Shown here one piece after another: positions 6,155 through 20,025 of a stretch of 32,000 bases of DNA; the stretch's first letter is position 1, and each line of letters opens with the position of its first letter. A program made the translations under genes and the position numbers. The notes beneath the pieces were generated by a model, which did not search any database, had not been told where the DNA came from, and was given only the letters and a program-made list of their open reading frames with translations. This DNA is from Candidatus Saccharimonadota bacterium (lineage in GTDB: Bacteria > Patescibacteriota > Saccharimonadia > Saccharimonadales > UBA4665). Location: the NCBI GenBank assembly GCA_016699955.1, contig CP064993.1, positions 150,001 to 182,000 of the forward strand, written 5' to 3'.

Positions 6155-6231
6155 GCGGGTGTAGCTCAGTTGTTTAGAGCGCGTCCTTGCCAAGGACGAG
6201 GCCAGGAGTTAGAGTCCCCTCACCCGCACCA
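6155..6231 (+). tRNA. tRNA-Gly (GCC), 77 nt with encoded CCA
   Basis: GCGGGTG TA GCTC AGTTGTTTA GAGC G CGTCC TTGCCAA GGACG AGGCC AGGAG TTAGAGT CCCCT CACCCGC A CCA. All four arms are present and the anticodon is GCC. The T-stem has one A.C mismatch, and the T-loop reads TTAGAGT instead of TTCGAGT. Confidence 0.8.
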
Positions 6232-6543
6232 AATATCTGAATTATGAGCCGAAAGGCTCTTTTTCTTTGCCTCAACAATGGTTTTAAAGGGGTCGTTTAG
6301 TATATAAGACAGCTTTTTGTCCTTTAGTTCAATGTTTGAAAGTACGTATTCTAGCAATTTCTGTCTTAGCCCCTCATCGCTCTCTTTAAACAGCTGGTCA
6401 GCCCGTTGAGCCAAGTCTAACAGGTAAGAAGCGGTTACTTGGAACTGCTTATTGTCGTTTGTTAGCAACTTTAGGCGGTCATTCAATTCCTGCTGTTTCT
6501 TTTCTAGCTCAGTTGCAATTTCATCGTGGAATGTCTGTGTAAT
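6220..6543 (-). pseudogene. C-terminal fragment of a recombinase-like gene (resembles the coiled-coil/C-terminal region of large serine recombinases), 5'-truncated
   Basis: The frame is open from 6543 with no plausible start: TQTFHDEIATELEKKQQELNDRLKLL...YLLDLAQRADQLFKESDEGLRQKLLEYVLSNIELKDKKLSYILNDPFKTIVEA...SDIWCG*. The last codons are the antisense of the tRNA-Gly 3' end and terminator. The frame is cut at 6543-6547 by the 96-nt repeat. The family call is from memory of the LF-x-S...LL-x2-VLSN-x2-L-x-(G/D)KKL-x-Y-x-L-x2-PF pattern. Confidence 0.4.
6246..6264 (+). terminator. Intrinsic terminator after tRNA-Gly
   Basis: GAGCC-GAAA-GGCTC followed by TTTTT. Confidence 0.5.
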
Positions 6544-6546
6544 TCA

Positions 6547-6642
6547 CCCGACCCGAAGCCGGTCGACCCTGGGAGACCGGTTGTCGTGACAGCGCATGAG
6601 CATCTGCGCTAGTCGACAAGGAGAGTCCCCTCACCCGCACCA
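6547..6642 (+). repeat. 96-nt partial copy of the 16579-16719 structured element, ending in the tRNA-Gly 3' 21-mer
   Basis: Identical to 16624-16719 except for 3 substitutions. Its last 21 nt (6622-6642) equal tRNA positions 6211-6231. Confidence 0.9.
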
Positions 6643-6676: not shown

Positions 6677-6803
6677 ATCTGTTAAAATCGGGTTTTAACA
6701 TCTCTAATTCCTAGCAAATGGAGACGAGACAGAAAAGCTAGAATGTAGGGCTATTAACAGAGAAGTCACTTGCAATATGGACAGGTTTTAACTCTTCAAT
6801 TTA

Positions 6804-6832
6804 TTGACATAAGTAATCATTAGTGCTATAAT
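6804..6832 (+). promoter_or_regulatory. Consensus sigma70-type promoter
   Basis: TTGACA (6804-6809), a 17-nt spacer and TATAAT (6827-6832). AGGAG lies 6 nt before the ATG at 6851. Confidence 0.55.
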
Positions 6833-7384: not shown

Positions 7385-7666
7385 CTACTTCCTAAAATCT
7401 AATAAATCCTCGGAGTCATTCCTTACTATTTTCTTTTTACGTGGGATCAACTTTGTGAAATAGGCGTAGGTTGATACTAGTACCTTCACGAATATTGCGA
7501 GTAGACAATAGATTGCAAGAAGGCCTAAGGCCGTGTTTGCGGTATCAATCCATGGTCCTTTAAAATTTTCTGTAATTATTGACCCGGCTAGGCCTATGGC
7601 AAAAACTGCAATAATCAAAACCCACCATGGAAGTAAGTTATACCAAGTAAGGCGATTATTTATCAT
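7385..7666 (-). CDS. Small membrane protein (93 aa, 2-3 TM helices)
   Basis: The hydrophobic segments LLPWWVLIIAVFAIGLAGSII and ALGLLAIYCLLAIFVKVLV are followed by a basic tail. The gene is divergent from the helicase gene. Confidence 0.5.
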   Translation of the reverse strand: MINNRLTWYNLLPWWVLIIAVFAIGLAGSIITENFKGPWIDTANTALGLLAIYCLLAIFVKVLVSTYAYFTKLIPRKKKIVRNDSEDLLDFRK

Positions 7667-7771
7667 GATAATATTATACCTCTCAATTATTCTTGTACAA
7701 TAATTCTTTTACTTAAGTCGTTGCGACGAAAGTTCTGATGTATAATTCGAGCAGAAACACCTTATCAATTT

Positions 7772-10700
7772 ATGGCAAAAATACCAATAACCATTAGTCA
7801 GCTAGCTAAATACGGACTTGATTATGTAAGTCTCATTTCAAGCAGTGCCTCAAGAAGTCGTCCAATTAAGACTGAACAGATGGACGCTGGGCTAGTATCT
7901 GCCCCAGACCTAATCTTCAAAGGAGAGACAGACAGTTTAACTATCAGCTTGGTTACATCGCTCGATAGACAGTTTGACCCAAATACGCTCGGTGAGGAAA
8001 AGAGCGACGAGCAACTACAGGCAGAACGTCGAGTTGAGCGTGATAGGGCGATATTTAATAGGTTCCAAGAAATCGACACGAAGATTAAGACCGACGAGTA
8101 CACGAAAAGGGTTGTATTTCAGACGGGCTTTATCTCATTTGAAGCAAAGCGTCTCAAGGAAAATGAGTTCAGCGATGATTATGAAAGTTATGAAGCACCA
8201 TTATTGCAGATTCCTGTAGCTGCAATAAACTTTAAATATACCAGTGACGGTGCAAATGTAATCATTGACTTGCCTGATAGCTATTTGGAAGTACTAACTG
8301 GCCCTCTTAAGAACTACTTGCCCCAGCAATATTTTGATAATGTCTTTAAATTTGTTGCCGATTCAGAAGCCGAAGGAAAGACAAGCCTTCCAGTGGAAGA
8401 TGATTTTATTGAAGATTTGTGGTCAGCAATCAGGGTGCAATTAGACCGAGTTGATGCCAAGGCGATATCAGAAAGCCCTGGTTTTGATACGAGTATAGTT
8501 GCCATTACAAACAAGACGAATCATTTCTTAGCCGAAGACTTAAGGGCCATTGCAACCCTAGAGGATGAAGACTTGCTAGAAACATCACTCGGTAGCTGGG
8601 TTTCAGACGAGGATATGGCAATTGAGCAAACCGTATCGGATGACGGCAGTACTGAGATATTCTTTCCTTTTGATTATGACAAGTACCAGCTCAAGGTGCT
8701 TGGGATAACTGCCAATAAGGCTGTTATCGTTGAGGGTCCTCCTGGTACTGGTAAATCTCAGACTATCTCGAACTTGCTAGTTCATTTAGCGGCTACTGGA
8801 AAAAGAGTATTGTTCGCTAGTCAAAAAGACCAAGCCATACGTGGCGTGAAGGATAAACTAAAAACTCTTGATGTGCCCTTTTTATTTGGTTATATTCCAG
8901 ACAAGACTTCGAAGTTGTATACAGCAGATGATGAGAAAGACAGTGCCGCCAATACTCTCATAGCGTTGAACCGAGAATTTCAAAAAGGCAAAGTCGGAGA
9001 CCTAAAAGAACCACTGGGCTTGCTTGTCGACCGTTCGAAGAATTTTGTAGAAAATATGAACATCGAACGTTCTCTTTATGCCCTGCACGAAGAGCGAAGA
9101 AGCCTTGGCTACTTAGATGCTTTCTATGATTATGGAATCAACTTAGAGTTTTATGGACAGTGTTTGGAATTTGAGAAAAACATTAGTGAGCTTAGTTCTA
9201 AAATTAAACAGTTTGAAGAGGCTCATAGTAAGTTTATAAAAATAGCCGACACTAAATTCAAGGACCTTAAAATAGACTATCAAGGTACGATTCCCTCTAC
9301 TGAGAGTATCTGCACATACTTCAAAGTAAATATGCCTGAGCGTTCTGGTTGGCTCGGCGGTAAGGTTAACGACATTAAGCTCCGAAGTGCGCTCAAGGAA
9401 CACTGTCGTGACATATTCCAAGAAATTTACGTAGAGTTTGAAAAGATATTATTCTCTGACAATACGAAGTCGGCTAAATTAAATATGCTAGATGGCGTAA
9501 AGGCATACTTCACATACTCCCTTGATAAAGAGACTCTATCCTATGTCTGCTCAGAGCTAGACAAACTCCTAGAGAGCAAAGATATGCCAGAGACAGTGTT
9601 GGCAAGCTTCAAAAAAGTTGTGAGTGAGCACGGTGGCGATAGCGAAGTATTTAAAGACCTTGATAGGTATAATGCAATCTCTGCTCAGATAGAAGAGGCG
9701 TCTCTTTATTCGGCCAACGAACTTAATCGTGAGATTAAGGATATTCGTAAGTTTTATAGGAAGAATGTCACAAACTATGTACGCAACCGAATATTGACAA
9801 GGGTTGGCGAGGCGAACAACAGCAAGGAACTTAGAGCTACGTTAGCCCAAGTTGCCAGAAGCCTAACCAAGAGCAAGAAAGCCAATAAGACATTTGATAG
9901 GTTGAAGCATAACGAGGACAACTTTAGTGCTATGTCAAAAGTAGTACCTATCTGGATGATGAGTCTGGATGACGTAAGCCGTATTGTGCCTCTAGAAATG
10001 AACGCTTTCGATTACGTTATTATCGACGAGGCTTCACAGTGTAACTTTGCATATGCGTTCCCAGCTATGTACCGTGCGGAACATACTATATTCTTTGGCG
10101 ATACGTTGCAGATGCGTGACGACAACATTATGTTCAAGTCAAATGACCAGCTTAGTGCTATAGCCAAAAAACATAAGATACCTGACGTATATCAGATTAA
10201 AGCCGAAGAAGACACTGTTAAGTCTGTGATGGACATAGCAAGCCTAAATGGTTTCAAGACTACCACTCTCAAATACCACTACCGTTCGCCTAAAGAGCTG
10301 ATTGGTTTTTCTAATACAGCGTTTTACGAGCCGATTGGTCGCAAGCTAGAGGCTGTTAATGATAATGTCGTCCCGTATAAAGACACTGGACGGGTCTTGC
10401 TTAACCATTTAGTTACTCCAAGTGATGACGAAGAAATAGGAAGCAAAACTAACCTTGCTGAGATACGAAGAATTCAGGAACTGGTTGAAGAGATTAAGAT
10501 CGACCCCGTTATTAAGGACAAGTCTATAGCTATATTGACATTCTTCAACGAGCAGGCGGAAGAGATACGTAATGTCATCAAAGATGAAGATATTAAAGTT
10601 GCAATTATTGACGGTATACAGGGAGATGAACGAGACATTGTAATTTACTCGTTTGTCATTAAAGACCCTAGTGATAAACGTCGGTATGTAAGCCGTACGG

Positions 10701-11635
10701 GCGAAGGCGGCGAAATAAACAAAGATATAGCTGCTGGACGAGTTAACGTGGCCTTTAGTCGTGCTCGGCTTCAGGTACACTGTGTAACCTCTCTTCCAAC
10801 AGAGCTGTGGCCTGACGGTATTTGGATTAAAAAGTATCTAGAGTATGTAGATAAAAATGGGGTACTATCCCGTCGACACAGTAAGTCTGAGCAACGTTTC
10901 GATTCTAATTTCGAAGAGCAGGTATTTAATTACCTATCTAGGGAATTGGGAGCAGATGAGTACACTGTGGAAACTCAAGCAGAATCTCTTGGCTTCAAGA
11001 TCGACCTAGTAGTTCATCATAAGGGCAAGAAGCTTGCAATTGAGTGTGATGGACCAACGCACTTCGAAGGCGGAGACGGTCAAGTTTATGTGCAGAACGA
11101 TTGGGAGCGTCAAGGTGCGTTAGAGGTCGCTGGATGGACCTTCTACCGCATATCATATTTCGACTGGGTTGATGACCAAGCAGAGGAAGAAAAGGCTCTA
11201 CTAGAGCATATAAAGCATTTCTTTGGCGAAGGACACTCTACAAGTAAGACGACTGTAGTTAAAGAACTTGAAAAAGAGACAGTCGCTCCTGAAGATGCTC
11301 CTAAAGACACTTACATAACAGACTTTTCTGATGAGCGTGTAGATAACGTAAGTCCAGTTAACGCTACACCAGCACCGACTGTTAATAAGGCTAAGACTTC
11401 AACCAAGAAAGAGTTTAGCGTTGGCGACCGAGGTGTTAATCAAGACGATTTTAGTAGGTATCTTCAGCCTCGTGCAAATGGGGTTATTAGAATGAGATAT
11501 CAAAGCGCTCGTGCTGGGAGTGCTGCTTACTGGCGTGATATCAAGTTGGTTAAATATGATGATACTTACCTATACGCTGAGGGCAACGACTACCCAATAA
11601 AATACCGTCGTGACCGTGTCATAGAGTTTAACTAG
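7772..11635 (+). CDS. SF1 (Upf1/Dna2-like, AAA_11/AAA_12) helicase with a DUF4011-like N-terminus, a DUF559/Vsr-like (MTES_1575-type) endonuclease domain and a WYL-like C-terminal domain
   Basis: Walker A is VEGPPGTGKSQT (nt about 8735-8758) and Walker B is YVIIDEASQC (about 10010-10040). Other helicase motifs are FFGDTLQM, LKYHYRS, IDGIQGDERDIVIYS and RVNVAFSRAR. The nuclease core is KIDLVVHHKGKKLAIECDGPTHF...GWTFYRISYFDW (about 10898-11170). The tail is IRMRYQSARAGSAAYWRDIKLVKYDDTYLYAEGNDYPIKYRRDRVIEF (about 11484-11632). Confidence 0.85.
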   Translation: MAKIPITISQLAKYGLDYVSLISSSASRSRPIKTEQMDAGLVSAPDLIFKGETDSLTISLVTSLDRQFDPNTLGEEKSDEQLQAERRVERDRAIFNRFQEIDTKIKTDEYTKRVVFQTGFISFEAKRLKENEFSDDYESYEAPLLQIPVAAINFKYTSDGANVIIDLPDSYLEVLTGPLKNYLPQQYFDNVFKFVADSEAEGKTSLPVEDDFIEDLWSAIRVQLDRVDAKAISESPGFDTSIVAITNKTNHFLAEDLRAIATLEDEDLLETSLGSWVSDEDMAIEQTVSDDGSTEIFFPFDYDKYQLKVLGITANKAVIVEGPPGTGKSQTISNLLVHLAATGKRVLFASQKDQAIRGVKDKLKTLDVPFLFGYIPDKTSKLYTADDEKDSAANTLIALNREFQKGKVGDLKEPLGLLVDRSKNFVENMNIERSLYALHEERRSLGYLDAFYDYGINLEFYGQCLEFEKNISELSSKIKQFEEAHSKFIKIADTKFKDLKIDYQGTIPSTESICTYFKVNMPERSGWLGGKVNDIKLRSALKEHCRDIFQEIYVEFEKILFSDNTKSAKLNMLDGVKAYFTYSLDKETLSYVCSELDKLLESKDMPETVLASFKKVVSEHGGDSEVFKDLDRYNAISAQIEEASLYSANELNREIKDIRKFYRKNVTNYVRNRILTRVGEANNSKELRATLAQVARSLTKSKKANKTFDRLKHNEDNFSAMSKVVPIWMMSLDDVSRIVPLEMNAFDYVIIDEASQCNFAYAFPAMYRAEHTIFFGDTLQMRDDNIMFKSNDQLSAIAKKHKIPDVYQIKAEEDTVKSVMDIASLNGFKTTTLKYHYRSPKELIGFSNTAFYEPIGRKLEAVNDNVVPYKDTGRVLLNHLVTPSDDEEIGSKTNLAEIRRIQELVEEIKIDPVIKDKSIAILTFFNEQAEEIRNVIKDEDIKVAIIDGIQGDERDIVIYSFVIKDPSDKRRYVSRTGEGGEINKDIAAGRVNVAFSRARLQVHCVTSLPTELWPDGIWIKKYLEYVDKNGVLSRRHSKSEQRFDSNFEEQVFNYLSRELGADEYTVETQAESLGFKIDLVVHHKGKKLAIECDGPTHFEGGDGQVYVQNDWERQGALEVAGWTFYRISYFDWVDDQAEEEKALLEHIKHFFGEGHSTSKTTVVKELEKETVAPEDAPKDTYITDFSDERVDNVSPVNATPAPTVNKAKTSTKKEFSVGDRGVNQDDFSRYLQPRANGVIRMRYQSARAGSAAYWRDIKLVKYDDTYLYAEGNDYPIKYRRDRVIEFN

Positions 11636-12721: not shown

Positions 12722-13117
12722 CTTAGCACTTGCGTGTATGTAAAAGAACTGATTGTGTTTATTGTCAAACAATATCCCCAACAAGCCTCTCCCAACAATC
12801 CTACCACTGTTAGTCGTTGGTCATTGTTGGGCTATTCTCAAAACATAGCTTTTTTATTTGTTGAGACATTTTTAGGTAGTTAGTGCGTTTACAACTACTC
12901 CTAGAAGTCTATGAGCTACGGGTACGGGGGTATATCAAGGCGTGTAAGTCTAGCTCGGCACAACCATACTCTTGTATTGGTTGTACGGTACGGCAAGTAT
13001 ATCTCTCCATCTTTGTATCTCTAACCTCAGTTGTGTGTAGTTATCCAAGCTAATTTGGTGTAAAAGTTTTTGGTCCTGCTGCACCATAGAAAATGTCGTT
13101 ACCACGTCTATACAAAA

Positions 13118-13146
13118 TTGACATAAGTTGTCGTAAGGTATATAAT
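13118..13146 (+). promoter_or_regulatory. Consensus sigma70-type promoter driving an apparently leaderless mRNA
   Basis: TTGACA (13118-13123), a 17-nt spacer and TATAAT (13141-13146). The ATG at 13154 is only 7 nt after the -10 box. Confidence 0.5.
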
Positions 13147-14750: not shown

Positions 14751-14863
14751 CTATCTAACAAACCGCCCGACAAGTTAAATACTTCAACTAGGTGCTTCAG
14801 CTTATAATCATTCACGACATCGATGGCTGATGTTTGAAATGCGTCAACTATCCTGCACCAAAT
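14747..14863 (-). repeat. Conserved junction module, copy B
   Basis: The minus frame reads IWCRIVDAFQTSAIDVVNDYKLKHLVEVFNLSGGLLDS*. The two peptides are clearly alignable, with shared blocks IVD, QTSA, KL and LVE-FNLSG. The DNA copies also align throughout with scattered substitutions. Confidence 0.6.
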
Positions 14864-14899
14864 GAGGACTTTCGGACACTTCGGTGTCCTTTTTCTTTG
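14855..14899 (+). repeat. 45-nt exact repeat: GCACCA core plus flank plus terminator (copy 1)
   Basis: gcaccaaatgaggactttcggacacttcggtgtcctttttctttg is identical to 16714-16758. It contains GGACAC-TTCG-GTGTCC followed by TTTTT. Confidence 0.9.
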
Positions 14900-16578: not shown

Positions 16579-16719
16579 GGTGCAGGGCTAGTAGGGACTC
16601 TAACGGCTTTGCCAGTGGCAAAGCCCGACCCGAAGCCGGTCGACCTTGGGAGACCGGTTGTCGTGACAGCGCATGAGCATCTGCGCTCGTCGACAAGGAG
16701 AGTCCCCCCACCCGCACCA
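16579..16719 (+). ncRNA. Unclassified GC-rich structured RNA-like element with a tRNA-Gly-like 3' terminus
   Basis: Closing helices are GGTGC(A)GGG/CCCGCACC and GGGACTCT (16594-16601)/AGAGTCCC (16699-16706). Internal hairpins are GGCTTTGCC-AGT-GGCAAAGCC, CCGGTC-N10-GACCGG and AGCGCA-N8-TGCGCT. It is visibly more GC-rich than its surroundings and is followed by a strong terminator at 16733-16753. No Rfam family was recognised. Confidence 0.35.
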
Positions 16720-16758
16720 AATGAGGACTTTCGGACACTTCGGTGTCCTTTTTCTTTG
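16714..16758 (+). repeat. 45-nt exact repeat: core plus flank plus terminator (copy 2)
   Basis: Identical to 14855-14899. Confidence 0.9.
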
Positions 16759-18976: not shown

Positions 18977-19168
18977 ATGGTTACAGGATACTGCGTTAAA
19001 TGTAAGGAAAAAGGCGTTGAATTGTCAGCACCAGAGATTGTCAAAACTAAAACAGGTGGTTTCATGGCCAAGGGCAAGCATGAAAAATGCGGAACTACAG
19101 TTTGCGCAATGATGTCTAAGGAAAATGCCGAAAAAGCAGTAGAAGCCGGCGCAAAAAAAGCCTACTAG
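18977..19168 (+). CDS. Small zinc-ribbon protein, DUF5679-like
   Basis: GYCVKCKEKGVEL...KGKHEKCGTTVC has paired CxxC-like motifs. AGAGGAGG lies 6 nt upstream of the ATG. Confidence 0.6.
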   Translation: MVTGYCVKCKEKGVELSAPEIVKTKTGGFMAKGKHEKCGTTVCAMMSKENAEKAVEAGAKKAY

Positions 19169-19207
19169 ACCTCAAGGCACGAAAATCTAATCAGTAACCG
19201 TATGCTG

Positions 19208-19386: not shown

Positions 19387-20025
19387 ATGAAAGAAACTCT
19401 AGGCATACTAGCCGTTATCGTTGGCTTCATCGGATATATCCCTTATTTCCGCACAATTTTTAGTGGAAAGACTAAGCCTCATGCATTCAGTTGGCTGGTG
19501 TGGGGGACTCTAACGGGTATTGCGTTTGTTAGCCAAGTTGCTGGCAATGGTGGGGCTGGGGCCTGGGTAACTGGCTTCACCGCGCTGATTAGCTTTACAA
19601 TATTTGGCCTTGCTCTGTTTAAGGGTGTTAAAGATTTTCCTCTTACTGACTGGCTGTGCCTCGCCGGAAGTATAATTGCTATTGCGTTGTGGGCACTCAC
19701 TAAGAATCCATTGATAGCAGTCGTGTTGATCACGATAATTGATTTCGTGGCATTCCTTCCTACAATTCGTAAGTCCTATTCTGAGCCGAACTCTGAACCT
19801 ATATTCACCTACTCGCTGAGCGGCCTCAAGTTCTTGATTGGGATCATAGCGCTCACTGAGCTGTCATGGCTAACAGTGTTATATCCCGCCTCATTAGTTA
19901 TGGCTAACGGAGGATTTGTGGTGATGTTGCTTATACGAAGAAATAAACTGGCTCAGGAGCAGTCATCTCTTGCGTTGAGTCCCCTCACCCGCTCCAAAGT
20001 GACACAACAGAGGACACATCGCTAA
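19387..20025 (+). CDS. Polytopic membrane protein (about 6 TM) whose 3' end runs into a tRNA-Gly 3'-end repeat
   Basis: The preferred start is the ATG at 19387 (MKETLGILAVIVGF...). The last codons ...SLALSPLTRSKVTQQRTHR* are encoded by the 19977-19996 repeat and its flank. Confidence 0.55.
   Translation: MKETLGILAVIVGFIGYIPYFRTIFSGKTKPHAFSWLVWGTLTGIAFVSQVAGNGGAGAWVTGFTALISFTIFGLALFKGVKDFPLTDWLCLAGSIIAIALWALTKNPLIAVVLITIIDFVAFLPTIRKSYSEPNSEPIFTYSLSGLKFLIGIIALTELSWLTVLYPASLVMANGGFVVMLLIRRNKLAQEQSSLALSPLTRSKVTQQRTHR
19977..19996 (+). repeat. Copy of the tRNA-Gly 3' end (19 of 20 nt)
   Basis: gagtcccctcacccgcTcca compared with tRNA 6212-6231 gagtcccctcacccgcAcca. Confidence 0.85.

Follow-up and report, generated by a model that had tools for sequence, protein, structure and literature searches.

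What is a helicase-nuclease of 1287 residues doing in a bacterium of the candidate phyla radiation (CPR), and what purpose does the small domain at its C-terminus serve? The question is raised by an open reading frame (ORF) at positions 7772–11635 of a 32,000-nt stretch of Candidatus Saccharimonadota DNA (contig CP064993.1, positions 150,001 to 182,000; hereafter, the window). The original prediction for this gene, made from the letters alone, was a giant superfamily 1 (SF1) helicase fused to a Vsr/DUF559-type nuclease and to a terminal WYL-like domain, the whole being a self-contained sense-and-cut enzyme. Judged by its sequence, the protein is a compact and divergent CPR branch of the superfamily that joins a DUF4011 region, an Upf1-like SF1 helicase and a Vsr-type (MTES_1575) nuclease. 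This superfamily takes in Hhe, a single-gene protein with validated anti-phage activity, as well as ProA of NCBIfam and PDC-S37, a PADLOC candidate. Based on this homology and on the genomic context, we lean towards the view that the protein is a defence enzyme of CPR bacteria that resembles Hhe, is encoded by a single gene and targets nucleic acid; its C-terminal tail would be an accessory nucleic-acid-binding or regulatory module. Part of this best explanation is that the gene probably travels as the single-gene cargo of serine-recombinase islands that integrate at tRNA genes.

Homologues that cover the entire protein (100% coverage), at 43–93% identity, all belong to Saccharibacteria (TM7). 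Every motif quoted in the original prediction was found in its place in the translation: GPPGTGKS at residues 322–329, DEASQ at 752–756, GDTLQ at 776–780, YRS at 837–839, QGDERD at 950–955, VAFSRAR at 993–999, IDLVV at 1077–1081, AIECDG at 1089–1094, YRISY at 1125–1129, and the stretch from IRMRY to YRRDRVIEF at 1239–1286. It was also right in reporting that no Shine-Dalgarno sequence lies upstream of the start codon. Since residues 1–21 are conserved among homologues, we take this start codon to be correct. The label “giant” holds in a relative sense only, given that canonical family members are 1540–2086 aa long and the protein encoded here is the compact form beside them. Of its four parts, Pfam recognises two, the motor and the nuclease, and misses the N-terminus and the tail. 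We also noted that the 23 nt around the start codon (TATGGCAAAAATACCAATAACCA, 7771–7793) are repeated with 83% identity 176 nt upstream (7595–7617), within a small minus-strand ORF (7385–7666); this may be chance.

The motor is complete and of the Upf1/Dna2 type, as had been claimed. It is matched by Pfam AAA_11 (55 bits at residues 634–781) and AAA_12 (74 bits at residues 824–1005), each with a gathering cut-off of 27. Conservation was assessed on an alignment of 67 full-length sequences, 34 of which are at only ~36% identity. In this alignment the whole of Walker A (G322–S329) is invariant, including K328, as are D752, E753, Q780, R838, Q950, G951, E953, R990 and R997 in the other helicase motifs. 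The nearest solved motors are IGHMBP2, Sen1, Dna2, Upf1 and ZNFX1, and we therefore assign the motor to the Upf1-like SF1B group. The likeness to the eukaryotic helicases of this group is limited to the helicase motifs, as their N- and C-terminal domains are unrelated to those of the window protein. Dna2 likewise couples a PD-(D/E)xK nuclease to its motor, but the Dna2 nuclease is N-terminal and RecB-like, whereas the one considered here follows the motor and is Vsr-type. The two halves of the motor are separated by a long insertion (Table 1), which is 21% identical to distant homologues, compared with 55–65% for the motor. Searched in isolation against Pfam (E ≤ 10), the insertion gave nothing useful and has no family of its own there; by analogy, it may correspond to the 1B/1C region of Upf1-like helicases.

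The match of the nuclease to MTES_1575 spans the whole profile (positions 1–96 of 96), and the Pfam RAP model scores 24.3 bits on the same domain, with a cut-off of 24.2. E1048, D1078, E1091, D1093, G1094, H1097, D1110 and R1113 are invariant in the 67 sequences, so the nuclease core proposed in the original prediction retains its invariant acidic and histidine residues (D...ExDG..H). As the residues of motor and nuclease are both invariant, we conclude that both predicted activities are under selection. The low-complexity linker that follows has conserved positions as well: P1173 and T1183 never vary, Y1181 and L1166 hardly vary, and its motif is retained even in Nanosynbacter proteins that have no tail.

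The N-terminal 300 residues had been described as DUF4011-like, and in this case a distant homology stood while a Pfam assignment did not. At E ≤ 10, Pfam DUF4011 (PF13195) gave no match in the isolated N-terminus, and the family is absent from the precomputed Pfam lists of 120 homologues and from five distant N-termini. An AlphaFold2 (AF2) model of the region has a mean predicted local distance difference test (pLDDT) of 74, and Foldseek found no meaningful match for it among solved structures (template-modelling score, TM, ~0.1). The homology came from elsewhere. A tblastn search of plasmids recovered ~29%-identical homologues on 520 plasmids, with names such as “DUF4011”, “DUF3320” or “AAA domain-containing”. 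Two of these canonical plasmid proteins were read against the CPR family, and motifs were found in the same order in both: LYLALGF.KW, APLVLIPV and FSFGKFQMYQDL in the canonical proteins are collinear with VVLQTGFISF, APLLQIPV and NKTNHFLAEDL in the CPR family, where GFISF, APLLQIPV and NKTNHFLAEDL are the core motifs. Comparison of the N-terminal alignment with single canonical sequences by hhalign was negative; a match emerged only when both sides were profiles. When 71 CPR N-termini were compared with eight RefSeq “DUF4011 domain-containing” N-termini, the global probability was 96%. After removal of the 50 residues next to Walker A, the same profiles gave a local probability of 86.9% (E 4e-6) over residues 113–268, compared with 0.2% for a reversed-template control. 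We infer that this matched stretch is probably the PF13195 region itself.

Among PADLOC models of defence systems, PDC-S37 matched at 6.8e-72 (residues 539–1184), Hhe at 3.9e-30, MkoA at 2.2e-27 and MkoC at 3e-26; the last two cover the shared SF1 motor only. In E. coli, Hhe confers protection against lambda, T3, T7 and PhiV-1, for which it requires a glutamate of its Vsr domain (bioRxiv 10.1101/2022.06.16.496414). Like the window protein, Hhe (NF042953; PADLOC PDLC02194) is a single polypeptide with no conserved partner gene, it is found on mobile or island DNA, and in it a DUF4011-type N-terminus and an Upf1-like SF1 motor are followed by a Vsr-type nuclease, the acidic residues of which are conserved. 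The two differ in length (about 1800–1900 aa for Hhe and 1287 aa here), in the N-terminus, which Pfam does not recognise in the window protein, and in the C-terminus, where Hhe has DUF3320 winged helices and the window protein has a barrel of the Sm fold. PDC-S37 and ProA are the best-scoring defence models and have the helicase-nuclease core in common with the window protein, but their profiles comprise 1550 and 1903 positions, and neither the N-terminus nor the tail of the window protein is part of the match. A literature search for PDC-S37 and ProA found no paper in the collection searched.

Further relatives come from the plasmid collection. Of eight homologues inspected, six bear the names DUF4011, DUF3320 or AAA; BREX brxL, Cas I-E, DUF262 or AbiE/GIY-YIG genes are found beside four of these six. 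Such plasmid proteins (for example, WP_065871658 of Vibrio and UUV20015 of a Fusobacteria plasmid) share ~29–30% identity with the window protein over motor plus nuclease, in addition to the collinear N-terminal motifs and the defence-island settings. They differ from it in being 1540–2086 aa long, in belonging to other phyla and in being plasmid-borne. Some carry the name DUF3320, which we take, by the name, to mark a winged helix-turn-helix (wHTH) C-terminus, and where single-stranded DNA (ssDNA) binding is present in these systems, it is provided by a separate PC4/YdbC gene.

In the defence reading, the enzyme would act on foreign or aberrant nucleic acid. The DUF4011-type N-terminus would hold, position, restrain or target the enzyme, while the SF1B motor would load on single-stranded DNA (or RNA) and move 5′ to 3′ at the cost of ATP. 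The Vsr-type nuclease would then nick or cut the substrate. The Sm-fold barrel would stand where canonical members have DUF3320 winged helices, and may add a contact to single-stranded nucleic acid or to a small ligand that tethers or tunes the enzyme.

Several observations weigh against this interpretation. The equivalog models score far below their cut-offs, with 226 bits against 1500 for ProA (NF058533; residues 656–1220, equivalent to profile positions 1218–1761 of 1903) and 154 bits against 2000 for Hhe (only residues 934–1189), and both matches are confined to the C-terminal half of the protein. The other genes of its island segment have no match in Pfam or PADLOC, and the wider window encodes ordinary metabolism. 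A DUF4011 gene belongs to the core genome of P. aeruginosa (PMC10250203). Identity within the family declines roughly with taxonomy, and in the oral clade the gene is fixed between prfB and ftsE/ftsX in 8–9 species, both of which fit vertical inheritance. Lastly, the cues as to a DNA or RNA substrate are mixed, as RNA helicases are among the nearest motors, the nuclease just reaches the RAP cut-off, and the best fold matches of the tail are Hfq/Lsm.

The tail is where the original prediction and our reading part company. It is conserved in 110 of 120 homologues, with the consensus FSVG.R.VNQ..F..YL....G..I.IRYQS.R.GSA..WR.I.L.KYD.TY.Y......Y.I.YRRDRVVEFK. An AF2 model based on a 45-sequence alignment (pLDDT 84.8) places a helix at tail positions 17–27 and strands at 31–36, 47–55, 59–62, 69–72 and 76–79. 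Foldseek against the PDB returned Lsm/SmAP proteins, Hfq and the SH3-like C-terminal domain of HIV integrase, with probabilities of 0.9–1.0 and TM to target of 0.5–0.73, the E-values all being ≥0.06. Because of this model and these matches, we assign the tail to the Sm/SH3-like small barrels. This is the fold class of WYL domains, and the SH3-like fold that had been predicted for the C-terminus was thus borne out.

A true WYL-type sensor, in which a nucleotide or ssDNA signal would switch the helicase-nuclease on, asks for more than the fold, and we consider it unlikely. The arrangement of one helix plus five strands, as in WYL and Sm domains, argues for it, and so do weak matches to Pfam WYL (PF13280) in 3 of 45 homologous tails (best E 7e-4), one of which (13.8 bits, cut-off 21.8) is aligned in register with profile positions 15–67 of 70. 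However, none of the tails reaches the gathering score, and the tail of the window protein itself gave no match at E ≤ 10. Profile comparison by hhalign with 57 BrxR-type WYL regulators reached 1.9%, and a reversed control 0.6%. Two tail profiles, run against PDB sequences, retrieved no WYL chain and only chance matches, for example to a glutamate receptor. The WYL regulators BrxR, CapW and PafBC have the same order of helix and five strands, but we found no significant sequence or profile similarity between them and the barrel, which is without a WCX-like extension; moreover, they are transcription factors, whereas the barrel described here is fused to an enzyme. Nor would a fusion of a helicase with a WYL domain be new. 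In the Pif1 helicase of Thermotoga elfii, a C-terminal WYL domain is reported to serve as an accessory ssDNA-binding module (bioRxiv 10.1101/163188). Like the window protein, this Pif1 belongs to the SF1B (5′ to 3′) helicases and ends in a small Sm-like barrel, but its motor is of the Pif1/RecD and not the Upf1-like type, it is without a nuclease, and Pfam recognises its barrel as a WYL domain, which is not so for that of the window protein.

The company that the barrel keeps elsewhere provides the remaining support for a sensor. Among 1.84 billion representative proteins, a profile search yielded only 69 barrel matches, and the barrel closes three kinds of protein, none with a Pfam annotation over the barrel itself. 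The first kind comprises further helicase-MTES_1575 proteins. The second consists of proteins of 200–300 aa with weak winged-helix signals. Two of these, of ~275 aa, were followed to their loci (P0152 and P0161; loci L091 and L093): one is divergent from an SNF2/DUF4391 operon, and the other is part of a conjugative element that also carries genes of the VirD4-like, Replic_Relax and MT-A70 types. The third kind, of 610–800 aa, has an RNA-polymerase alpha-CTD, mostly together with sigma-70 region 4. Among five such proteins scanned (P0149, P0159, P0166, P0170 and P0172; loci L092, L096 and L097), DpnI_C was found in two and a winged helix in one. They are encoded directly after a gene for a GHKL/MORC-like HATPase_c_3 ATPase and once also directly before a type I restriction-modification (R-M) system (hsdM), a setting that recalls WYL defence regulators; the alpha-CTD barrel protein and the GHKL gene may form a two-gene conflict module. 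A word-indexed search with the non-helicase barrels found nine proteins, all unannotated. The barrel is thus a small unannotated family attached to DNA-binding proteins that are encoded at mobile and defence-type loci; its shape and its associations recall WYL domains, yet it is not demonstrably WYL.

The tail also varies across the family. Proteins of the core family (~1180 aa) have no tail and end ~64 aa past the ExDG motif. In the oral Nanosynbacter clade, a cluster of 188 sequences of 1200 aa stops after the linker motif Y(I/V)TDF, and we did not find the barrel encoded elsewhere in Nanosynbacter. Since both groups lack the tail and yet keep every catalytic residue, it is not needed for the basic mechanism. 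Other relatives have modified tails: an additional domain precedes the barrel at loci L028, L029 and L031, while L027, L030 and L034–L036 have a different tail of ~170 aa with the motif DIR.Y...YTGF.KKGFR, which is duplicated. These alternative tails gave a weak PC4 signal only (Pfam E 0.008, below cut-off; hhalign 4.6%). The best plasmid homologue, on a Fusobacteria plasmid, has a gene annotated as “PC4/YdbC family ssDNA-binding protein” 15 bp upstream (L085, 1669–1896). Because the tail varies between clades, a PC4/YdbC gene adjoins the Fusobacteria homologue and the Pif1 WYL domain sets a precedent, we favour accessory nucleic-acid binding over an obligatory sensor as the role of the tail, and the sensor role originally proposed is not upheld.

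Our family survey took one genome per species and found 77 loci. Only Saccharibacteria match over residues 1–1286. Other CPR phyla, WWE3, Daviesbacteria, Moranbacteria, Levybacteria, Nealsonbacteria and Uhrbacteria among them, match residues ~6–1136 at 35–42% identity, and a few bins of Omnitrophota, Chlamydiia, Planctomycetales and Verrucomicrobia match the same range; it is these proteins that make up the core family of ~1180 aa. A large serine recombinase is encoded within about 6 kb in 21 of the 77 loci, in several phyla, and mostly 0.3–5 kb upstream in divergent orientation. Of 18 loci scanned, six have a tRNA gene at most 0.5 kb from the recombinase. In three of these the two genes overlap (tRNA-Trp, -Asn and -Arg); the other three are tRNA-Gly, -Phe and -Glu. 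In the complete genome of Ca. Saccharimonas aalborgensis (CP005957; locus L079), a Resolvase-domain protein of 522 aa is encoded 0.9 kb upstream of the homologue, L336_0164, which is 85% identical to the window protein. Other relatives have defence genes next to them: at L001, a gene for an OLD/GajA/AriA-like ATPase begins 13 bp downstream of the homologue, and in Nanosynbacter (L081/L082, 10001–15591), the homologue is followed by tRNA-Leu and then, ~1.1 kb downstream, by an AbiJ_NTD3 plus Ymh (HEPN-type) gene.

A conserved operon partner was looked for and rejected, as the neighbours of the gene in the window adjoin it in no related locus and the recombinase is the only widely shared neighbour. 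The reading as a phage gene was likewise rejected, with one weak match in 2.9 million viral contigs. Megablast against phage and plasmid collections gave no match. On the far side of the recombinase in Ca. Saccharimonas aalborgensis, we observed a metal-resistance block (L079, 1–9082) with cation efflux, P-type ATPase, CsoR-like repressor and MerR/HTH_17 genes; an RVT_1 reverse transcriptase is encoded ~5 kb downstream of the homologue, in a region rich in mobile elements.

These data can be set against a mainly vertical, housekeeping role in genome maintenance, in which a Dna2- or AddAB-like enzyme of the reduced CPR genomes would process ends, remove flaps or carry out nick-directed repair. 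The strong full-length conservation within Saccharibacteria and across many CPR phyla, the invariant catalytic residues, the stable prfB-ftsEX synteny of the oral clade, the presence of Dna2 among the nearest solved motors and the core status of the DUF4011 gene in P. aeruginosa are all in its favour. On the other side, the gene is in an island in the window, its context differs even between copies that are 80–88% identical, and in many loci a recombinase and a tRNA gene are close to it. One species-representative copy has become a pseudogene (L052, 10001–13499), having lost residues 193–342, including Walker A, and acquired a frameshift, although this may be an assembly error in a metagenome-assembled genome (MAG), and one MAG carries two divergent copies. 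Together with the defence genes beside relatives, this makes a housekeeping role distinctly unlikely in our judgement.

Less probable again, with only a slim chance of being correct, is an RNA-directed enzyme that degrades foreign or faulty transcripts in the manner of Mokosh, composed of an Upf1/IGHMBP2-like RNA helicase, a RAP-like RNase and an Hfq/Lsm-like barrel. The best solved relatives of the motor (IGHMBP2, Sen1 and Upf1), the marginal RAP score, the MkoA and MkoC matches, and Lsm and Hfq as best fold matches of the tail can all be cited for it. Yet MTES_1575, a model of Vsr-type DNA nucleases, gives the nuclease a far higher score (69 bits), the MkoA and MkoC matches go no further than the shared motor, Hhe is understood as a DNA-nuclease system, and the other modules of the family bind single- or double-stranded DNA (PC4/YdbC, and DUF3320 wHTH by its name).

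The defence-enzyme reading that we prefer also rests on the setting of the gene in the window, which, like the link of the family to serine recombinases, the original prediction had missed. The last 21 nt of tRNA-Gly have four same-strand matches in the window, compared with none in 100 shuffles. Two 96-nt direct repeats, 97% identical and 10,077 bp apart, bracket the gene, and GC content is 0.40–0.43 over 6–15 kb as opposed to up to 0.55 in the flanks. The tRNA-Gly locus has the signature of a stacked, now decayed array of integrated elements (Table 1), with segments of ~0.4, 8.2, 1.9 and 3.3 kb. The helicase-nuclease is in the second of these, which extends from 6643 to about 14860 or 16719. 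The 88-aa ORF next to the tRNA agrees in position and orientation with intact recombinases at L001, L007, L014 and L036. The sequence around the candidate right boundary (14840–14899) resembles that beside the 3′ end of the recombinase in Ca. Saccharimonas aalborgensis, and 48 nt of it (14852–14899) are repeated at 16711–16758. Within the island, Rfam identified nothing beyond the tRNA. The convergent neighbour of 379 aa was considered as a counterpart of the AbiJ-like or other downstream genes of relatives and rejected, no similarity having been found. The locus L014, whose protein is 88% identical, shares with the window only the gene, the tRNA-Gly (98.7% identical and upstream of the homologue) and a short repeat.

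Table 1. Features of the helicase-nuclease gene and of the tRNA-Gly locus in the window (positions are counted from its first letter)
Feature	Position (nt)	Strand	Basis or remark
tRNA-Gly(GCC), integration target, left edge of array	6155..6231	+	ARAGORN, Rfam
88-aa ORF, probable C-terminal remnant of large serine recombinase, abuts tRNA	6220..6486	-	Weak match to residues 412-469 of L059 recombinase, E 0.012
96-nt direct repeat, copy 1	6547..6642	+	Ends in exact 21-nt tRNA-Gly 3′ end (6622-6642)
Helicase-nuclease coding sequence	7772..11635	+	ATG start, single ORF, 1287 aa plus stop
N-terminal region (aa 1-300)	7772..8671	+	Distantly DUF4011-type core at aa 113-268 (nt 8108-8575)
Helicase domain 1A, first part, with Walker A GPPGTGKS (aa 322-329, nt 8735-8758)	8672..8881	+	AAA_19 and AAA_30 matches at aa 312-363
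Poorly conserved insertion of ~360 aa (aa 371-730), Walker A to motif II	8882..9961	+	Lies between Walker A matches and AAA_11
Helicase motifs II-VI (aa 731-1010): DEASQ, GDTLQ, YRS, QGDERD, VAFSRAR	9962..10801	+	AAA_11, AAA_12
MTES_1575 / Vsr-DUF559-type PD-(D/E)xK nuclease (aa 1047-1147)	10910..11212	+	Pfam, 69.4 bits, cut-off 38.2
Low-complexity linker (aa 1148-1215) with conserved motif PE..PK..Y(I/V)TDF	11213..11416	+	Homologue alignment
C-terminal Sm/SH3-like beta-barrel (aa 1216-1287), one helix plus five strands	11417..11632	+	AF2 and Foldseek; no Pfam model
Degenerate tRNA 3′ end copy plus terminator-like hairpin	14840..14899	+	Candidate right boundary of helicase-bearing segment
96-nt direct repeat, copy 2, 97% identical	16624..16719	+	Ends in tRNA-Gly 3′ end with one mismatch (16699-16719)
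Fourth tRNA-Gly 3′ end copy, two mismatches, outer array edge	19976..19996	+	Repeat search

The association with islands could also be turned round, so that the gene would serve the element itself. Vsr enzymes are nickases, and one can picture the protein not as a defence enzyme but as the engine that propagates CPR islands of a new class, with a serine recombinase and integration at tRNA genes, in which the Vsr-type domain would nick the excised element, the SF1B motor would drive rolling-circle-type replication or transfer, and the Sm-fold tail would hold the displaced strand; we think this very improbable. Least probable of all in our estimate is the general form of the idea, a RepHel-like nickase-helicase that starts replication or transfer of the excised island: the recombinase is close by in the loci counted above and no other conserved element gene is common to them, but many copies have no recombinase nearby, the oral-clade synteny is fixed, the family is almost absent from the viral contigs, its canonical relatives are validated or candidate defence genes, and other defence genes occur in the same islands.

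CPR bacteria (Patescibacteria) are believed to have few of the classical defence systems, and descriptions of their mobile elements are scarce. The family would be a widespread candidate single-gene defence enzyme of this radiation, at least partly mobile, which current annotation models miss at the equivalog level, where Hhe and ProA fall far short of their cut-offs. The helicase-nuclease architecture and its role in defence are already known from Hhe, and the advance is therefore incremental and not categorical. What is new here is a compact clade specific to the CPR, its link to serine-recombinase islands inserting at tRNA genes, and the replacement of the DUF3320-type C-terminus by an Sm-fold barrel for which there is no Pfam model and which is common to other defence-associated DNA-binding proteins. 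Because DNA-binding proteins encoded next to R-M, GHKL/MORC-like and SNF2 loci have the barrel too, learning what it binds would inform several systems.

Three non-coding features of the island region were noted in passing. A 193-bp intergenic sequence (18977–19169) is 84% identical to two stretches of L014 (11726–11918 and 12983–13113), and is a dispersed repeat with no Rfam match. About 1.3 kb downstream of the helicase-nuclease gene lies a 149-nt non-coding stretch (12943–13091) that shares 80.5% identity with a sequence at the same relative position in Ca. Saccharimonas aalborgensis (L079, 15692–15840) and was found nowhere else. Neither this stretch nor the 96-nt repeat gave a convincing RNA fold, with z-scores for the former of -0.4 (plus strand) and -2.3 (minus strand) in the window and about 0 in Ca. 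Saccharimonas aalborgensis. Finally, a promoter-like 30-nt sequence, in which TTGACA and TATAAT are separated by 17 nt, is present at 6803–6832 and again, with 77% identity, at 13117–13146, and each copy sits just upstream of a small island ORF (6851 and 13154, respectively).

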